A stretch of 32,000 nt of DNA from Candidatus Scalindua sp. (GCA_031316235.1 JALDRA010000001.1:3000001-3032000); one strand, 5' to 3'; positions 518-20,238 are shown, numbered from the stretch's first letter. Notes: generated from the sequence alone by a model not told the origin. A program made the numbers and translations.

Positions 518-860
518 TTCTTATGCTTCCCTCATTTACAATCCTCAATCTCAGAAGCCGACAAGGTTCTTGACTGGTTCTGTTCAATCGGAAAATCTGA
601 ATTTCACGCAAGTTCATGCCCTGAAATTCCAAAAAAATTCTGCAGGGGACACAATAAAAGTTTACCGTTAACTCTTTTTATCATGATCATGATACCGTAA
701 GAAATAATCTAATTCTATAGAGAAATCAATTAATAGTTTGGCAAATTAAATTGAAATCATATTAATAGTACAGTGCAGACATATCAGAATTGAGAGGTGA
801 ATGGTAAAGAATCTCCATATCACCGTGCATTTAATGCTTAACGATTTTGTCTGCTGCGTA

Positions 861-974
861 TATATACTAAAACCGATTTGGTTTTCGGCTTTACCGGAAA
901 CCAAATCTTGGTGAAGGTATACTCGCTCAATTTTATTTCGGATTTTATCCGAAAACCATTTCGAAATGAGTATA
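861..974 (-). repeat. Copy A (intact) of a ~113-nt structured intergenic repeat (MITE/REP-like)
   Basis: The reverse complement reads TATACTCATTTCGAAATGGTTTTCGGATAAAATCCGAAATAAAATTGAGCGAGTATACCTTCACCAAGATTTGGTTTCCGGTAAAGCCGAAAACCAAATCGGTTTTAGTATA. It aligns end to end with copies C and E. It lies in the divergent trpF/CDF intergenic region. Confidence 0.9.
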
Positions 975-1200
975 CAAAGGGATTTCTGCACCAGGTCAAA
1001 TTATATCAGCATGCAATCTGCTGCGGAGCAGTTATCTGGCTTCTCTGATTACCCTGAACTATCATCAGGAGTTTCAATAAGGAGATGGCGGTTTTTCAAC
1101 AATTGACTGTTGACTGAGTTCCATTGTAGTAAAAAAATACTTGATTTTCACCTGGAGCTGTCCTATTCTTATCTTGTTGTAATCAGATAAGGGGAGATTT

Positions 1201-2443: not shown

Positions 2444-2535
2444 TATACTCATCTCATACTGGATTTCGGATAAAATCCGAGATACAATTGAGCGAGTATA
2501 CCTTCACCAAGATTTGGTTTCCGGTAAAACCGATC
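2444..2535 (+). repeat. Copy B of the structured repeat; 3' module replaced or truncated
   Basis: TATACTCATCTCATACTGGATTTCGGATAAAATCCGAGATACAATTGAGCGAGTATACCTTCACCAAGATTTGGTTTCCGGTAAAACCGA matches the consensus and then diverges (TCATTACGATCGAATGG...). The copy starts 53 nt after the CDF stop codon. Confidence 0.85.
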
Positions 2536-5016: not shown

Positions 5017-5728
5017 TTCGTAATTGTGTTCCTCCTTACTTTCCAGCTATTATCCGTTAAGTCACCTTTTTTCCGGGTGAAAATAATGTAGGGTATCACC
5101 CTGAGAGAGGTAATGTCAAATTAAAAAAAAGATGCGAGAATAGTATTGTAAATAATGTGTATGCAATAGCCTACAGAAAAAACGTAGAATTTTCAATTGG
5201 TTAACTCTCTATCAGGATTTTCTTTTAATATACTGTAGGTTAACCCATTCAACACTCTACCGTATTTTTATTACTGCATTTTGATAAGATATTTATACAT
5301 ATATAGTTATTTTTATTTCCCATACTGGTATACTATTCGCTGATCAGGTATGCTTGGAAACGTGAAAAAAGCTTTGTTATTTTTTTCTGATTCCTTCGGA
5401 GGATTATTGGTAGTACGTTTCTCTCTATAGGTTAAGCGTATCCTGCTTCGCAACTCTCATAAAATTACTGCCACGTCTCCACTTGAATGGCTATTGTGTC
5501 CCCATGCCGGGTATCTGCCCGAATGGATTCATCCGTGCGGGTGTAATATGCACGTAAAACATGATCATGGAATTTCTCCGTACCTGCTCTTAATGACAGA
5601 TTGTTTCACGTGCCTTGCTGTCCTCTTCCATCCAGGAGCGATAATATTTCTTCCCCGCTGGTTTATCCCAAGGAAGCGGTGTGGCAGGTTTTTTTCGTTT
5701 ACAGGCTCATGTAAAGTGTTTTTGTGTT

Positions 5729-5842
5729 TATACTCATCTCATAGTGGTTTTCGGATAAAATCCGAGATAAATTTGAGCGAGTATACCTTCACCAGGATAT
5801 GGTTTCCGGTAAAACCGAAAACCATATCGGTTTTAGTATATA
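5729..5842 (+). repeat. Copy C (intact) of the structured repeat
   Basis: The sequence is TATACTCATCTCATAGTGGTTTTCGGATAAAATCCGAGATAAATTTGAGCGAGTATACCTTCACCAGGATATGGTTTCCGGTAAAACCGAAAACCATATCGGTTTTAGTATATA. It ends 37 nt upstream of the CapD-like start codon. Confidence 0.9.
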
Positions 5843-5878
5843 ACTGAAATAGTGAGGATTCTCTGAAACAGTACAGAA

Positions 5879-7945
5879 ATGATAGAGTTCCGAAAAGGTT
5901 TTTTGATTAAGAACAGGCGTATAGTGGTGACAGCCATTCATATCCTTCAGGTAGTGGTGGCGAATTATCTTGCCTTTCTCCTGAGATTTGAGACACCATT
6001 TTCGACTGTGTATGCAGACCAGCTGTTCCCTTCACTTCCTGTCCTGTTGACAATCCGCCTTGCCCTTTACCTTCAGGCGGGCATGTATAAAGATCTCTGG
6101 CGTTATTCAAGTATCAGCGACATGATCAGTATTATAAGGACGGTTGCAATCGGAAGTGTCGTATTCTTTGTGATAAACAGGTATTTCCTGGGGAGTACCT
6201 ACTATCCTCTCTCGGTGTACGTGCTTGAATGGATGCTGCTTCTGTTTATTTCCTGCGGGACCAGGCTTTTGATCAGGGTCTGTTTCAAGAAGTATCGAAG
6301 CTTTCAATCGTCAGCCAGAAAGATCCTGATTATTGGTACGACAGCTGGTGAAGCAATTGTACGGGATATGAAAAACAACCCGGGATCATCGTATAACCCG
6401 ATCGGGTTCATGGACGAAGACCCGTATAAAAAAGGGCTTGAGATACACGGTGTTCCCATCTTCGGTCAAATAAGCGGCCTGGCTGGCGTGATAAAGAAGC
6501 AGAAGCCTGATGAGATACTGATTTCAATGGTTTCAACGGACAGTAAAACGATTAAGAGTATCTATGACCAAAGTAAGCCCTTTAACATTCCTATCAAGAA
6601 ACTGCCCGGGATAAATGATATCCTTGTGGGCAATATTTCCGTGGAAGCGAGACTTGGTCAGCGTTTAATTGACGCCGGCATGGTGAAGGAAACCCAGATA
6701 CAGGAGGCCCTTGCCTTACAGAAGAATGAGGGGGGGATGCTGGGTTCGATACTGGTTCAAAGCGGGTATATCAAGGAGGAAGAGCTTTTTTCTTATCTTA
6801 CCGAGCAGAGCGGTATTTCCCGTATGAAACCGATATCGCTTGAAGATCTGATCCAGAGAGAGCAGGTGAGGTCTGACATACAATCAGTGCGGGAATTTAT
6901 CCAGGGGAAAACGGTGATGGTAACGGGGGCAGGCGGTTCGATAGGGTCTGAGCTGTGCCGTCAGTTAATTAAGTACAACCCCGCTCACCTGGTGCTCTAT
7001 GAGAGATATGAGAACAGTCTGTTTCATATAGATCATGAATTAAACCGTTTTGAAGAGAACAGGGCAAAGAAGAACTTTACGCCGGTGATAGGAGACATGC
7101 TGGATACCAGGAATCTGGAATATGTCTTTTCCACATACAGGCCTCAGATTATTTTTCATGCGGCGGCACACAAACATGTTCCCCTGTTAGAGCAGAACCC
7201 GCTGGAGGCGGTCAAGAACAATGTCTTCGGTACAAAAAATGTGATAGAAGCGGCGGTGAAGTACAATGCGGAGAGTTTTGTGCTGATCTCATCAGACAAG
7301 GCGGTAAACCCGACAAGTACCATGGGGGCCACGAAACGCATAGCCGAGTTTTTAACGATAGCGATGAATGCCTTTTCAAGTACAAAATTTTCAACCGTAC
7401 GGTTTGGAAATGTGCTGGGGAGTAATGGAAGTGTTATCAAGATCTTCGAGGAGCAGTTGAAGCGGGGAGGGCCATTAACGATTACGCATCCGGAGATAAA
7501 GAGGTTTTTCATGCTGATACCGGAGGCGATCCAGCTGGTTCTTATGGCGGCGGCGCTGAAGAAGGGTGGACAGATTCTGGTGCTTGATATGGGAGAGCAG
7601 ATAAAGATCGTAGAGCTTGCGGAGAATCTGATAAGGCTTTCGGGGTTTGTTCCTCATAAGGAGATTAAGATGGAGTTTACGGGTCTTCGCCCTGGTGAGA
7701 AGTTGTATGAAGAGCTGTTTGACAAATCGGAAAAGGTTATCAGCACGATGCATGAAAAGTTCTGGCTGACGATTCCTGAAACTCCTTCGATAGGGGAATT
7801 TAACAATCAGATTGCGGAACTTGAACGCATTGTTCGGGACAATGCAATAGACGAAGTAGTCTCGGCAATTAAGGACATCGTGCCAAGTTTTAAATGTGAT
7901 TACCACCATGAAACTGATCAGTCATTGTCGCAGAATACTGGATAA
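5879..7945 (+). CDS. Membrane-anchored polysaccharide biosynthesis nucleotide-sugar 4,6-dehydratase (CapD/PglF/WbpM family) carrying an inserted MshEN-like motif
   Basis: The ORF encodes 688 aa. It has four N-terminal TM helices, then a Rossmann-like domain (KILIIGTTAGEAIV...NPIGFMDEDP), then the SDR catalytic domain (VMVTGAGGSIGSEL...ISSDKAVNPTSTMGATKR). The insert at residues 258-310 is described in the findings. Confidence 0.92.
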   Translation: MIEFRKGFLIKNRRIVVTAIHILQVVVANYLAFLLRFETPFSTVYADQLFPSLPVLLTIRLALYLQAGMYKDLWRYSSISDMISIIRTVAIGSVVFFVINRYFLGSTYYPLSVYVLEWMLLLFISCGTRLLIRVCFKKYRSFQSSARKILIIGTTAGEAIVRDMKNNPGSSYNPIGFMDEDPYKKGLEIHGVPIFGQISGLAGVIKKQKPDEILISMVSTDSKTIKSIYDQSKPFNIPIKKLPGINDILVGNISVEARLGQRLIDAGMVKETQIQEALALQKNEGGMLGSILVQSGYIKEEELFSYLTEQSGISRMKPISLEDLIQREQVRSDIQSVREFIQGKTVMVTGAGGSIGSELCRQLIKYNPAHLVLYERYENSLFHIDHELNRFEENRAKKNFTPVIGDMLDTRNLEYVFSTYRPQIIFHAAAHKHVPLLEQNPLEAVKNNVFGTKNVIEAAVKYNAESFVLISSDKAVNPTSTMGATKRIAEFLTIAMNAFSSTKFSTVRFGNVLGSNGSVIKIFEEQLKRGGPLTITHPEIKRFFMLIPEAIQLVLMAAALKKGGQILVLDMGEQIKIVELAENLIRLSGFVPHKEIKMEFTGLRPGEKLYEELFDKSEKVISTMHEKFWLTIPETPSIGEFNNQIAELERIVRDNAIDEVVSAIKDIVPSFKCDYHHETDQSLSQNTG

Positions 7946-8022: not shown

Positions 8023-9879
8023 CTACAACGAATCCTCTTCTTGTTTAAAAACCAACTTTTCCTGTTCGAAGCGTTCTGTAATCTCTTCCAGCGCTTCGTA
8101 CAGGTTGTTGATTTCGCTTCTGGTTTTCTTTACAGAGAGAGATAGTGCGGTGATGCTGTTTCCATCTTTTTCGTAGGACGCCTTTATGAGGGCTTCTGTG
8201 TCATTGTGAAGATGCTGTTCCAATTCGTCAATGGCTTTCTCGATCTTCTCTATCTTTTTTTTGTAAGGTGTGAGAGTTTTTGACCGTTTGGTAAAAAGTG
8301 CGGCACGCGCCTTTCTTGCATCCTTCTGGGTAATTGTCTTCTGAGGTTTTGCCTGTATACTGGCCACTTTCTTTCCGAGCGTAATGCTCTCCTGGTCGTC
8401 CCAGCCGATCTGGTCAAGGAACTTTGCGTATCCGCCATAAAAGAGAAATGCCTTGTCATCTTGAAAGACAATCAACTTGTTTGCAATCTTGTGAAGAATA
8501 TATTCATTGTGCGTTACCATGACTACGGCACCCTCAAAAGAGGTGATAGCCTCAATCATAGCATCGCATGATTGAAGGTCCAGATGATGTGTGGGTTCGT
8601 CAAGCAGGAGAAGGTTGGTTGGTGATACCAGTATTTTACCGAACAAGACTCTGCATTTCTCTCCTCCTGAGAGGACATGTATCTTCTTGAGGGCGCTATC
8701 CCCTGAAAACATCATCGCACCGCAGATATCCCTGACTTTTCTCCGTTCGAGAAATGGGTTACTCAGTGAAATCTCTTCCTCGATTGTCAGTGTGTCGTTG
8801 AGGGTTGCGGTATTGGCTTGTTCATAGTATCCGATTTCTGCTTGCGGGTGGTTTGTAATCTTGCCCTCAACAGGGGCTAATCCGCCTGCCAGCAGTTTCA
8901 AGAGAGTCGTTTTCCCTTTTCCGTTTTGGCCTATGATGCCGATCCTGTCTCGGCTCTCGATAGCAAGATCGAGGTCGCTAAACAAATAGGGAGGTCTGCC
9001 ATCGTAGGAGAATGCCACCTTGTGTACTTCCTGCACATACTTGGCTCGAAAAGCAGCGGAACCAAACGAGAATGAAAGGATAGGGATTTTATCCAGTTTC
9101 TTATTTATTTCCTGTTTTTCAAGGGTCTTGATCCTTGATTGTACCAGGCTCGCATGGCGTGCCTTTGCCCGGAAACTGTTAATGAACTGTTCTGCCTGCT
9201 TTCTCTTTTTCTCTTCGTTGAGACGCTCTTTTTCGTAAATTTCCTCTTCTTGGGCAATCCTCTCATAATACTCTTTTGTTGTACCCTGAATTTTTTTTAT
9301 CTTGGTCCGGTGGATGCCCATGATGTGTGTCGTCACCGTATCCATGAAACTCCTGTCATGGCTTATAATCATGATCTCATTTGGCCAGGAATTCAAAAAA
9401 TGTGTCAGCCAGCGGATAGAAATGATATCGAGAAAATTGGTGGGCTCATCAAGTAACAGTAAGTTTGGTTCGGAAACCAGGACTTTTGCCAGATTCAGGC
9501 GTATCTGGTAACCACCTGAGAATTCGGAGGGACTTCGATAGAAATCACCCTCTGAAAATCCAAGGCCTGAAAGGATCTTTTTGACCCTCCACTCTTCCTC
9601 TTTTTGATTCTCCTGCAGACCGCGACAGCCTTCTTCCAGGACTGTCGGCTTTGTAAAAGAGATATGCTGACTCAGATACCCAATGCGATAATCCTTTGGG
9701 ATCTTAATGGTACCCTCATCATAGTGTTCCTCGCCTGTGAGGAGCCGGAAAAGGGTTGTTTTCCCATGACCGTTTCTTCCTATGAGGCCAATTCGCTCAC
9801 GGGGGCTGAGACCAAAAGAGATGTGATTAAAGATGACGTGTCCGAAATACTGTTTACTGAGATTTTGTACAGAGATCAT
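8023..9879 (-). CDS. ABC-F family ATPase (Uup/YheS-like; two ABC cassettes, no TM domain, C-terminal coiled coil)
   Basis: There are two Walker A motifs (GRNGHGKTT, GQNGKGKTT), two signature motifs (FSGGYQIRL, LSGGEKCRV) and two Walker B motifs (LLLLDEPT twice). An inter-domain linker and a Lys/Glu-rich C-terminal coiled coil are present. The track ORF extends to 9972, but ABC-F proteins normally start at the MISVQNLSK-type N-terminus, which is the ATG at 9879. Confidence 0.9.
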   Translation of the reverse strand: MISVQNLSKQYFGHVIFNHISFGLSPRERIGLIGRNGHGKTTLFRLLTGEEHYDEGTIKIPKDYRIGYLSQHISFTKPTVLEEGCRGLQENQKEEEWRVKKILSGLGFSEGDFYRSPSEFSGGYQIRLNLAKVLVSEPNLLLLDEPTNFLDIISIRWLTHFLNSWPNEIMIISHDRSFMDTVTTHIMGIHRTKIKKIQGTTKEYYERIAQEEEIYEKERLNEEKKRKQAEQFINSFRAKARHASLVQSRIKTLEKQEINKKLDKIPILSFSFGSAAFRAKYVQEVHKVAFSYDGRPPYLFSDLDLAIESRDRIGIIGQNGKGKTTLLKLLAGGLAPVEGKITNHPQAEIGYYEQANTATLNDTLTIEEEISLSNPFLERRKVRDICGAMMFSGDSALKKIHVLSGGEKCRVLFGKILVSPTNLLLLDEPTHHLDLQSCDAMIEAITSFEGAVVMVTHNEYILHKIANKLIVFQDDKAFLFYGGYAKFLDQIGWDDQESITLGKKVASIQAKPQKTITQKDARKARAALFTKRSKTLTPYKKKIEKIEKAIDELEQHLHNDTEALIKASYEKDGNSITALSLSVKKTRSEINNLYEALEEITERFEQEKLVFKQEEDSL

Positions 9880-12373: not shown

Positions 12374-12388
12374 ACTTCAAAATTAAGA

Positions 12389-12493
12389 CTTATCTAGAGT
12401 GGTGGAGGGATCGGCCCTGAGAAACCACAGCAACCGATTTCTGCGTAATGCGGGAATATCGGTGCTAATTCCTACCTGATAGGGAAAGATAAG
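12389..12493 (+). promoter_or_regulatory. SAM-I (S-box) riboswitch aptamer
   Basis: CTTATCTAGAGTGGTGGAGGGATCGGCCCTGAGAAACCACAGCAACCGATTT...ATCGGTGCTAATTCCTACCTGATAGGGAAAGATAAG carries all the conserved S-box blocks: GGUGGAGGGA, GGCCC, GAxAAACC, GCAACC, GGUGCUAAUUCC and the P1 closing strand AGAUAAG. Confidence 0.95.
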
Positions 12494-12500
12494 ATTAGGA

Positions 12501-12557: not shown

Positions 12558-13805
12558 ATGGGTTTTGTCAAAGGACTTAAATGCAGGGAATGTGGAAAAG
12601 ACTATCCGAAGGAACCAATTCATGTTTGCAGCTTCTGTTTTGGTCCCCTGGAGGTTGATTACGAGTACGATGAAATAGGGAAAGTGATAAGTCGGGAGCT
12701 GATTGAGGCTCGAAAACCAACTATGTGGAGGTACAAAGAGCTCTTACCTCTGGATAGTGAACCGACAGTTGGTGCACAAGTTGGCTTTACTCCATTAGTA
12801 AGAGCTGATAATTTAGCGAGAAAACTCGGGGTAGATGAGCTCTATGTGAAAAATGACTCTGTTAACTTTCCCACATTTTCTTTCAAGGACAGAGTAGTTT
12901 CCGCTGCCCTTTCAAAAGCCAAGGAGTTTGGTTTTAAGACTGTGGCTTGTGCAACGACGGGTAATCTGGGAAACTCTGTTGCTGCGCAGGCGGTTCAGGG
13001 AAATCTGGAGAGCTATATCATCATGCCTGCCAATCTGGAGCAGGGAAAGGTGCTCGGCACCTCTATTTACGGGACAAATGTTATCGGCATAAACGGTGGT
13101 AATTATGATGGTGTGAACAGGTTGTGCTCTGAAATTTCAGATAAGTATGGCTGGGCATTTGCAAATATCAATCTCCGCCCGTTTTACGCTGAAGGTTCAA
13201 AGACCTACGGCTATGAGATTGTGGAACAGCTTGGCTGGAAAGCTCCAAAGCACGTGGTAGTGCCTATGGCCGGTGGTTCACTGATCATCAAAATAGGGAA
13301 AGCGATAAAGGAGTTTGAGAAACTAGGTTTGATTAATGGTTCAGATACGAAACTTTATGGTGCACAGGCTTCAGGATCCTCACCGATTTCAACTGCAGTG
13401 AAAAATGGAAGTGAATTTATTAAGCCGGTTAAACCCGATACAATAGCGCACTCTATTGCCATTGGGAATCCTGCGGATGGTTATTATTCCATAAAGGCAA
13501 TTCATAATAGCGGTGGCTGGGCTGAAGATGTTACTGATGATGAGTTAATCGAGGGGATAAAGCTCCTTGCCTCAACAGAAGGGATATTTACCGAGACTGC
13601 GGGTGGTGTAACCGTGGCCGTTACAAAAAAACTTCTGGAACAGGAAAGGATACCAAGGAACGAGTCAATCGTAATTTGTATTACGGGGAACGGCCTTAAA
13701 ACGCAGGAGGCGGTTTTGGGCAGGGTAAAACAACCCAGTATTATCAAACCTACTTTAGAAGATTTTGTCGCATTTATGGAGAAGAAAGAGTGTCTGGCCG
13801 TGTGA
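12558..13805 (+). CDS. Threonine synthase homologue (PLP fold type II) with an N-terminal zinc ribbon; candidate O-phosphohomoserine-dependent homocysteine synthase
   Basis: The ORF encodes 415 aa. The N-terminus is a Cys4 ribbon (CRECGKDY...CSFCFGPLEV). The PLP-lysine motif is TFSFKDR, and the glycine loop is GNLGNS...MAGGS. A GGAGG Shine-Dalgarno sequence is present. The gene lies directly downstream of the SAM riboswitch. Confidence 0.85.
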   Translation: MGFVKGLKCRECGKDYPKEPIHVCSFCFGPLEVDYEYDEIGKVISRELIEARKPTMWRYKELLPLDSEPTVGAQVGFTPLVRADNLARKLGVDELYVKNDSVNFPTFSFKDRVVSAALSKAKEFGFKTVACATTGNLGNSVAAQAVQGNLESYIIMPANLEQGKVLGTSIYGTNVIGINGGNYDGVNRLCSEISDKYGWAFANINLRPFYAEGSKTYGYEIVEQLGWKAPKHVVVPMAGGSLIIKIGKAIKEFEKLGLINGSDTKLYGAQASGSSPISTAVKNGSEFIKPVKPDTIAHSIAIGNPADGYYSIKAIHNSGGWAEDVTDDELIEGIKLLASTEGIFTETAGGVTVAVTKKLLEQERIPRNESIVICITGNGLKTQEAVLGRVKQPSIIKPTLEDFVAFMEKKECLAV

Positions 13806-16037: not shown

Positions 16038-16150
16038 TATATACTGAAACCAGATCCTGGTGAAGGTATCCCCGGACAAAAAGCGCCGAGGACTTTACTC
16101 ACTCAATTTTATCTCGGATTTTATCCAAAATCCAGTATGAGATGAGTATA
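16038..16150 (-). repeat. Copy D of the structured repeat; carries a 27-nt insertion and lacks the core of the 3' hairpin
   Basis: The reverse complement reads TATACTCATCTCATACTGGATTTTGGATAAAATCCGAGATAAAATTGAGTGAGTA[AAGTCCTCGGCGCTTTTTGTCCGGGGA]TACCTTCACCAGGATCTGGTTT-CAGTATATA. The 5' module is identical to copy E. Confidence 0.85.
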
Positions 16151-16232: not shown

Positions 16233-16550
16233 ATGGGAAAGGTAAGATGCCCGGGAAGCATAAAAACGACGGTACCGGAACCACTTGAGCGTAAGTGCCC
16301 TAAATGTGGCAGCTTAGTTGAGATCTGGAGTGATGAGGAAAAGGCAGACTGCAGGTGCGGTGCAACAGTCTTTAAGGATGTAAAAATGACCTGTGTCGTG
16401 TGGTGTAATGCTGCGGAAGAGTGTGTTGGCGACATAGTAGACGTCAAAAAAATTAAGGAAGAAGCAAAAAAGAAGGCGGCTTCTGAAGGAAATCCAGACT
16501 TCGTAAAACAGGTAACAGAGAAAATTATGAAGGAGAAAAAATCTGATTAA
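16233..16550 (+). CDS. Small cysteine-rich zinc-ribbon protein with a Lys/Glu-rich tail (hypothetical)
   Basis: The ORF encodes 105 aa with 8 Cys, including CPKCG...CRCG and C...WC.....EC. The C-terminal tail is KKIKEEAKKKAASEG...KIMKEKKSD. The composition is coding-like. I recognised no family. Confidence 0.6.
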   Translation: MGKVRCPGSIKTTVPEPLERKCPKCGSLVEIWSDEEKADCRCGATVFKDVKMTCVVWCNAAEECVGDIVDVKKIKEEAKKKAASEGNPDFVKQVTEKIMKEKKSD

Positions 16551-16561
16551 GTTTTTCCTGT

Positions 16562-16674
16562 TATATTCAGCTCATACTGGATTTTGGATAAAATCCGAGA
16601 TAAAATTGAGCGAGTATACCTTCACCAGGATCTGGTTTCCGGTAAAACCGAAAACCAGATCGGTTTTAGTATAT
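16562..16674 (+). repeat. Copy E (intact) of the structured repeat
   Basis: The sequence is TATATTCAGCTCATACTGGATTTTGGATAAAATCCGAGATAAAATTGAGCGAGTATACCTTCACCAGGATCTGGTTTCCGGTAAAACCGAAAACCAGATCGGTTTTAGTATAT. It starts 12 nt after the zinc-ribbon stop codon and is in inverted orientation relative to copy D. Confidence 0.9.
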
Positions 16675-20124: not shown

Positions 20125-20238
20125 TGTATACGGAAACCGATTTGGTCTTAGATTTTTCTAAAAACCAAAGACTGGTTAATGGTATATTTGCTCCGTTTTT
20201 TCCGTATTTTATCCGAAAATCATTATGAGATGAGTATA
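20125..20238 (-). repeat. Copy F of the structured repeat; strongly diverged
   Basis: The reverse complement reads TATACTCATCTCATAATGATTTTCGGATAAAATACGGAAAAAACGGAGCAAATATACCATTAACCAGTCTTTGGTTTTTAGAAAAATCTAAGACCAAATCGGTTTCCGTATACA. The termini and the TTTGGT/ACCAAA pairing are retained, but the interior has drifted. Confidence 0.7.

Follow-up and report, generated by a model that had tools for sequence, protein, structure and literature searches.

A hairpin with matched substitutions in Candidatus Scalindua is probably the sub-terminal palindrome of a TA-duplicating MITE

The hairpin at positions 16629-16661 of a 32,000-nucleotide stretch of Candidatus Scalindua DNA (the whole stretch analysed, here called the window) is probably, with a confidence that we put near 0.8, the sub-terminal palindrome of a MITE of the IS630/Tc1-mariner type that has spread through Candidatus Scalindua / Scalinduaceae. 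An earlier, sequence-only reading of this DNA had recognized the hairpin and its matched base changes but had missed that the repeat is a TA-duplicating mobile element. This identity accounts for repeats that are dense between the genes of anammox Scalindua, six of them in this 32-kb window. Such repeats break assemblies, generate spurious ORFs and could pass for structured RNAs. For an uncultured nitrogen-cycle lineage of global importance, they also mark recent genome dynamics, and their defined pair of ends can be used for finding the responsible transposase. Substitutions that match across the inverted repeat of a mobile element say little in favour of RNA structure, because the copies share descent, the arms may be a protein-recognition sequence and palindromes can self-correct.

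The hairpin and the repeat that carries it

The hairpin that the sequence-only reading placed at 16629-16667 (GATCTGGTTTCCGGTAAAACCGAAAACCAGATCGGTTTT) is present, with its coordinates and bases correct. Its stem had been given as 10 bp enclosing a 13-nt loop, but RNA folds extend the helix to 14-15 bp (16629-16642/43 with 16647/48-16661), with one C16639·A16651 mismatch and an apical loop of 3-5 nt in the UAAAA region. Three ACC/GGU pairs are able to lengthen the stem in these folds. The inverted-repeat finder returns arms of 15 nt each (16629-16643 and 16647-16661) that are 93% complementary. The long hairpin has an energy of -20.5 kcal/mol, versus -12.4 for the 10-bp form; DNA parameters give -11.9 kcal/mol for the hairpin. 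RNA folds of either strand of the element lie far below the energies of shuffled sequences (z -6.9 and -6.6; about -6.7 for both strands of the copy that carries this hairpin). The inner 25-mer of the hairpin occurs three times in the window, against 0 expected from shuffles.

This structure is the 3' module of a modular repeat of ~112 nt, of which the window carries six copies, designated A to F. The features discussed below are as follows.

16629-16661 (+): the studied hairpin, with 5' arm 16629-16642 (GATCTGGTTTCCGG), apical loop 16643-16647 and 3' arm 16648-16661 (CCGAAAACCAGATC); variable pair C16632:G16658 and mismatch C16639·A16651, from RNA folds, the inverted-repeat finder and pair statistics
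16643-16668 (+): alternative 9-bp hairpin, TAAAACCGA/TCGGTTTTA, from the inverted-repeat finder; it overlaps the 3' arm of the main hairpin
863-974 (-): copy A, complete basic MITE; variable pair T:A
2444-2533 (+): copy B, 3'-truncated MITE with module 1 and the hairpin 5' arm kept, and the 3' arm and end gone; module profile models place module 1 at 2444-2498 and module 3 model positions 1-33 at 2501-2533
5729-5840 (+): copy C, complete basic MITE; hairpin 5796-5828, variable pair A5799:T5825
16040-16150 (-): copy D, MITE with the optional GC-rich module 2 (16067-16095, minus strand) and its hairpin deleted
16562-16673 (+): copy E, complete basic MITE of 112 nt that carries the studied hairpin; module 1 at 16562-16618, module 3 at 16619-16673
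20127-20238 (-): copy F, diverged MITE of the 'TTAGA/TCTAA' subfamily; variable pair T:A

Copy E is defined by nhmmer matches to the module models and by alignment with other copies, and its span counts the flanking TA at both ends (16562-16563 and 16672-16673). Copy D carries the same C allele as copy E; its hairpin was lost between GGTTT direct repeats, and GATCTGGTTTCAGTATA is the remnant. In copy F the apical stem has AGA/TCT in place of CGG/CCG.

Copies B and E had been described as sitting directly after stop codons. Copy E starts 11 nt past a stop; copy B starts 52 nt past one, which is not directly after it. One reading frame of the element is free of stops, so copies can lengthen or create spurious ORFs, and two mechanically called ORFs (5494-5847, plus strand, 117 aa; 746-991, minus strand, 81 aa) traverse copies C and A. 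A small Cys-rich ORF (16233-16550) lies between copies D (-) and E (+), which are inverted relative to each other and point their 3' ends outward, a composite-like arrangement. Orthologous loci have the Cys-rich gene without copy D or E, so the gene itself has not moved. Truncation of a 105-aa gene by a MITE was considered and rejected: the ortholog in locus L134 stops at the same codon with no element there.

About 146 non-redundant copies of the element are found in ~1 Mb of Scalindua/Scalinduaceae sequence, and profile searches recover 137 full copies in ~0.88 Mb of Scalindua loci plus the window. The architecture consists of module 1, an optional GC-rich module 2 and module 3, which forms the hairpin. 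Full copies range from 112 to about 220 nt and fall into size classes of 112/113, 139/140, 166 and 194 nt. The smallest class is the basic form, and the 139/140-nt class adds a 27-nt GC-rich module between modules 1 and 3. In the 166- and 194-nt forms, extra GC-rich inserts separate CCGG from TAAAA, a position precisely in the hairpin's apical loop; about 40 locus copies (for example, in L063 and L022) carry loop inserts of 27-80 nt. Within the first 117 loci, the optional GC-rich modules are essentially confined to the element. L134 has a comparable GC-rich hairpin, GCCCGCCCGG…CCGTTCGGACGGGC, by itself between genes at about 9735-9770, and GC-rich mini-hairpins may therefore be independent small repeats that also enter the MITE loop.

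The element has no coding capacity, is present in many copies and lies almost always between genes. Long ORFs (at least 110 aa) take up ~68% of the sequence, and 128 of the 137 copies (93%) lie outside them (p about 1e-52). An exact 19-mer of module 1 occurs in more than 117 stretches of species-representative genomes, nearly all in three Candidatus Scalindua / Scalinduaceae MAGs. The few matches elsewhere contain that region only, without the 3' module, and among all of these matches full elements are confined to Scalindua/Scalinduaceae genomes. A metagenome scan with a general pattern yielded only two contigs, both T:A at the variable pair; the metagenome scan for copies with a 5' variable base other than T gave 0 matches. 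The element was not found in a viral contig scan or by plasmid BLAST. No Scalindua MITE family of this kind is described in the literature searched, and the element appears to be an undescribed family that is a new member of a well-known kind, not a new kind.

Target sites, ends and transposition

Mobility is most evident where empty and filled sites can be compared. Empty sites have a single TA, and filled sites read TA-element-TA. The intact host repeat (...CGCGCCTTG-TA-CCTGGGCAG...) has CCTTG-TA-CCTGGG where it is empty and CCTTG-TA[element]TA-CCTGGG where it is filled, and this is true for both orientations of the element. Written with the ends of the element, the interrupted repeat is ...CCTTG-TA-[TACT...GAGTG/AGTA]-TA-CCTGGG.... 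The nested insertions may amount to only two or three independent events, since a composite can be amplified again. TA duplication also agrees with three looser orthologous comparisons.

This host is a second repeat family of ~155 nt, …GTGAACGAAAACCCAGTGTTTGAACCAAAACTGCCCAGG-TA-CAAGGCGCGAAATAATTACGTAACCGGAGC…, with dozens of intact copies, and it is abundant in Scalindua sp. SCAELEC01. Its central TA is a recurrent insertion site of the MITE, which enters in either orientation. There is no example in the window; those in the fetched Scalindua loci (labelled L) include the following.

L107:821-981: ~155-nt repeat
L117:1124-1280 and 6609-6765: ~155-nt repeats
L097:2293-2454: ~155-nt repeat
About 50 other places in Scalindua loci: ~155-nt repeats

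Syntenic loci of related Scalindua genomes (L120-L130, L133-L135) are without copies D, E and F; for copy E, the orthologous loci that lack it are L130 and L133-L135. The sole orthologous filled pair found between two Scalindua species is L018:4498-4609 / L076:6827-6939. Its elements are 97% identical and its 120-nt flanks 57-69% identical, a comparison of element and flank rates that, with one orthologous pair only, has too few cases to use. The linker variants of the two elements differ (CCTTCACC, ACTGCAACC), and the pair could reflect conversion between copies or re-insertion.

The ends of the element are imperfect terminal inverted repeats, with 28-nt arms that are 71% complementary in a consensus-like copy. 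Their layout is TA|TACT-N10-TGGTTTTCGG ... CCGAAAACCA-N10-AGTA|TA. Only the terminal TACT/AGTA and the inner 10-mer match well, and these are separated by the same 10-nt spacing at both ends. The motif TGGTTT(T/C)CGG is present three times: forward near the 5' end, forward again as the 5' arm of the hairpin and reversed as the 3' arm, which is at the same time the inner part of the 3' terminal repeat. The hairpin would thus exist because this motif stands in both orientations near the 3' end. If this layout is the explanation, the arms may be conserved as a sequence recognized by a transposase and not as an RNA helix. It is pure conjecture on our part that TGGTTTTCGG is a putative transposase binding site.

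The element is filed as a MITE of the IS630/Tc1-mariner type because its TA target is duplicated on insertion and because of its architecture. The assignment rests on these two features, since neither the window nor ~0.9 Mb of fetched loci yielded an autonomous element or a transposase whose ends match. In those loci, left and right ends paired over long distances enclose only ordinary genes and no transposase, clustering of all ORFs of at least 150 aa in the same ~0.9 Mb reveals no multi-copy protein, and there is no transposase among the 20 ORFs of the window. A TA target with a duplication of 2 bp marks IS630/Tc1-mariner transposition, and ISY100 and other elements of the IS630 family insert into TA and duplicate it (PMC2170065). 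The same feature underlies the proposal that the pneumococcal MITE RUP is mobilized by IS630-Spn1 at TA targets (PMC2229807). By analogy, an IS630/Tc1-mariner-type transposase acting in trans would cut the Scalindua element at its ends and paste it into TA.

A different class of mobile repeat has to be weighed here. REP/REPIN-type repeats are spread by RAYT (IS200/IS605-like) transposases that read a DNA hairpin, and if the element belonged with them, the hairpin would be its functional unit. The Scalindua repeat resembles such sequences in being abundant, short, intergenic and palindromic, with a strong DNA hairpin (-11.9 kcal/mol) and a modular mosaic make-up that recalls BIMEs. However, it has a duplicated TA and terminal inverted repeats, and we know of neither in REP/REPIN or IS200/IS605 transposition. 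Its hairpin can also go while the rest of the element persists, there is no RAYT-like gene in the window and the fetched loci, whose ORFs are unannotated, contain no multi-copy ORF. This classification is highly improbable.

Matched substitutions in the stem

The sequence-only reading drew attention to one stem position that forms C:G in copy E, A:T in copy C and T:A in copy A, and all three Watson-Crick pairs are confirmed in the window. Across 146 non-redundant copies the pair is T:A in 139, C:G in two, A:T in one, T·G in two, G·A in one and A·A in one. Of these seven departures, three are Watson-Crick and two are U·G wobbles on the plus strand of the element. Each of the two positions is changed in five of the 146 copies, and three of those five are changed at both, which exceeds independence (Fisher one-sided 1.9e-4). 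Because copies are related by descent, this association reflects only about two or three events. The three matched cases (window copies E and C, and L067:1977) belong to one sublineage whose members also share variants in module 1.

The same sublineage that varies in the hairpin varies at the homologous base of module 1, immediately 5' of its TGG. Nearly all locus copies have A there, and C or G is found in window copies E (16577), C (5744), B (2459) and D (16135) and in L067:1977-2087; the three motif copies of an element differ in this base. Two explanations of the variable pair were rejected. A protein half-site with the same base in all three TGG motifs is inconsistent with the bases in copy C (G/A/A) and L067:1977 (G/C/C). 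A mutational hot spot does not fit rates of five in 146 at each position and 0-9 in 95 at neighbouring stem positions.

The pattern had been called classic covariation that indicates selection on structure. The association is indeed non-random, but selection on the hairpin structure is unproven, given that two or three events underlie the association and that about 40 changes in the outer stem are uncompensated. The reading at issue holds that transcripts of neighbouring genes contain the hairpin as a selected, cis-acting RNA stem-loop (a terminator, stabilizer, processing site or switch) whose pairing is kept by compensation. Hairpin selection would also yield the non-random variable pair, with its three Watson-Crick and two wobble departures. 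It would likewise yield the apical stem of the diverged subfamily, which has been restructured yet is still paired. Strong folding of both strands relative to shuffles is in keeping with such a stem-loop. Transcripts of MITEs do have such effects elsewhere: those of the Correia/NEMIS repeats, which form stem-loops, are proposed targets of RNase III (PMC2229807). At the variable pair, the energy penalty is about 3.5-4 kcal/mol for a mismatch and nil for U·G, so the path U:A -> U·G -> C:G is energetically free. Over the 17-pair stem in 59 distinct sequences, double-change cells number 10, versus 4.5±1.7 in shuffles, a value matched by one of 500 shuffles.

Other properties of the stem weigh against compensation. 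Any double change is confined to three of the 17 pairs, probably through two to four events. Within the outer 10 bp, about 40 one-sided changes comprise 11 wobbles, 12 transition mismatches and 17 transversion mismatches, so that wobble is no commoner than transition mismatch, and this spectrum is the one expected from neutral decay. In the commonest subfamilies two inner pairs are mismatched: pair 16-28 as C·A, in 43 of the 59 distinct sequences, and pair 18-26 as A·C, in 38 of 59. These inner mismatches are G·U on the opposite strand, where the T·G copies are A·C, so no single transcribed strand is favoured. RNAalifold had been suggested as a check for supported covariation; with 48 distinct basic copies its covariation term is only -0.77, and the long stem is not recovered, so the program supplies no independent call of the structure. 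Window copy D, L019 and L116 each lost the hairpin in an independent deletion between the GGTTT repeats on either side of it. Evidently the palindrome takes part in DNA slippage, and a copy can persist without it. Together with the gene-context results given below, these observations make a selected RNA stem-loop quite unlikely.

The alternative of mutation followed by repair within the hairpin, which the sequence-only reading had also offered, is still viable. Quasipalindrome correction by template switching is an established mechanism in bacteria. Through intrastrand switching, a change in one arm could be copied to the other, and the covariation would be a mutational by-product. This explanation addresses the covariation only and is compatible with the MITE identity. 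The palindrome behaves as a substrate for replication slippage, with three independent deletions across it, unmatched one-step states stand beside matched ones and the rest of the stem is without sign of purifying selection on pairing. Intermediates one step away from T:A exist for both substitution paths: two copies in L131, which is a contig of a genome closely related to that of the window, carry T·G, and L061 carries A·A. G·A is a further unmatched state. However, all three matched cases fall at one of the 10 outer-stem positions, whereas generic copying should act anywhere. The roughly 40 one-sided changes elsewhere have been left uncorrected, as have the long-standing C·A mismatches of the major subfamilies. 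On balance, template switching is a possible source of the matched pairs, although not the one we would expect.

For the TA-duplicating MITE that we favour, the variable pair probably changed two or three times in the window's sublineage by ordinary two-step substitution. Matching would then have been kept either by a need for the palindrome or hairpin in copies that are still transposing, or by arm-to-arm template switching. These data cannot separate the two routes.

A further reading is that the TA-duplicating MITE spreads only with an intact sub-terminal hairpin, or that the hairpin now serves the host as an RNA or DNA signal. We regard this proposal as unlikely. If it is true, changes that persist in transposing lineages should be compensated or wobble-compatible, while dead copies decay freely. 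A TA-duplicating (Tc1/IS630-like) MITE would then depend on a folded nucleic-acid structure, which lies outside the textbook mechanism of this family, and true selection on hairpin integrity would be an unusual structural requirement for such an element. The GC-rich mini-hairpins placed precisely in the loop would be a second, hairpin-seeking passenger.

Transcription signals and known repeat families

Pseudoknot topology, or a switch between two mutually exclusive hairpins, had been proposed from the complementarity of AAAACCG in the loop to CGGTTTT after the stem. The complementarity itself is borne out by the inverted-repeat finder, which pairs 16643-16651 with 16660-16668 in a 9-bp second stem that includes these sequences. 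However, C16661 is common to both stems, the two 3' arms are separated by 0 nt and the CCG of the second stem is already paired in the extended first stem. An H-type pseudoknot needs loops that are long enough to cross the grooves. The second stem has an energy of -8.1 kcal/mol versus -20.5 for the long hairpin and a probability of about 1e-5 in copy E; RNA folds do find it competing in the CCAG subfamily. Its seven pairs show 0 double changes among the 59 distinct sequences, and all measures are at or below those of shuffles and no better than slid controls. The shared base, the absent connecting loop, the lack of covariation and the energies leave both the pseudoknot and the switch unsupported.

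A resemblance to an intrinsic terminator had been seen as well. The run after the hairpin is UUUU, followed by AGUAUA. A terminator scan passes over the main hairpin and reports just the weaker hairpin of the second stem, one versus 0.8 expected in shuffles. Orientation relative to upstream genes is random: of 96 elements whose two neighbours could both be called (with crude ORF calling), 45 point the same way as the upstream ORF (p=0.61). Tandem, divergent and convergent spacers are occupied roughly in proportion to spacer length. With the scan at shuffle expectation and orientation random, the terminator proposal is not supported, and the gene context also speaks against a selected stem-loop in neighbouring transcripts. 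With respect to the downstream ORF there is a mild bias, 60 of the 96 elements being co-oriented (binomial p=0.018, again with crude ORF calling, from the 137 elements in L001-L117 plus the window).

Comparison with known RNA families also counts against a selected RNA: the best Rfam matches to the element are generic hairpin (miRNA-precursor) models with E>0.5 and 12-16 bits, versus gathering scores of 40-144. The sole Rfam match in the window lies outside the element. It is a SAM riboswitch (RF00162, 78.9 bits) at 12387-12495 (+), just upstream of the ORF of a PLP-dependent enzyme (12558-13805) in an ordinary S-box arrangement.

The nearest described counterparts of the Scalindua element are RUP, Correia/NEMIS and other bacterial MITEs (PMC2229807), along with the IS630/ISY100 mechanism of transposition (PMC2170065). 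Like the enterobacterial REP/BIME and pneumococcal BOX repeats, the Scalindua element consists of modules in variable number, forms strong hairpins and is intergenic. It differs from them in its TA duplication and terminal inverted repeats, neither of which, to our knowledge, occurs in those families. Correia/NEMIS repeats of Neisseria likewise end in TA, carry inverted repeats, come in more than one size (107 and 155 bp in Neisseria) and lie between genes. Stem-loops formed by their transcripts have been proposed to influence adjacent mRNAs (PMC2229807). In contrast, the Scalindua element gives no sign of RNA processing, an IHF site or promoter activity, and its orientation to neighbouring genes is close to random.

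With IS630/Tc1-mariner elements such as ISY100, the likeness is one of architecture: a duplicated TA target (PMC2170065) and inverted-repeat ends. The Scalindua element is unlike them in having no transposase and in being about 10 times shorter. The 107-bp pneumococcal MITE RUP offers further parallels, although no similarity in sequence is expected. RUP is linked to IS630-Spn1, whereas no cognate IS was found for the Scalindua element in the window or the sampled loci; the Scalindua element is also modular, with GC-rich inserts even in its hairpin loop, and its host is an anammox planctomycete. Both are non-coding elements of ~110 bp with terminal inverted repeats that insert at TA and are present in about a hundred or more intergenic copies. 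RUP also tends to enter other repeated or mobile sequences (PMC2229807), just as the Scalindua element is nested in the ~155-nt repeat.
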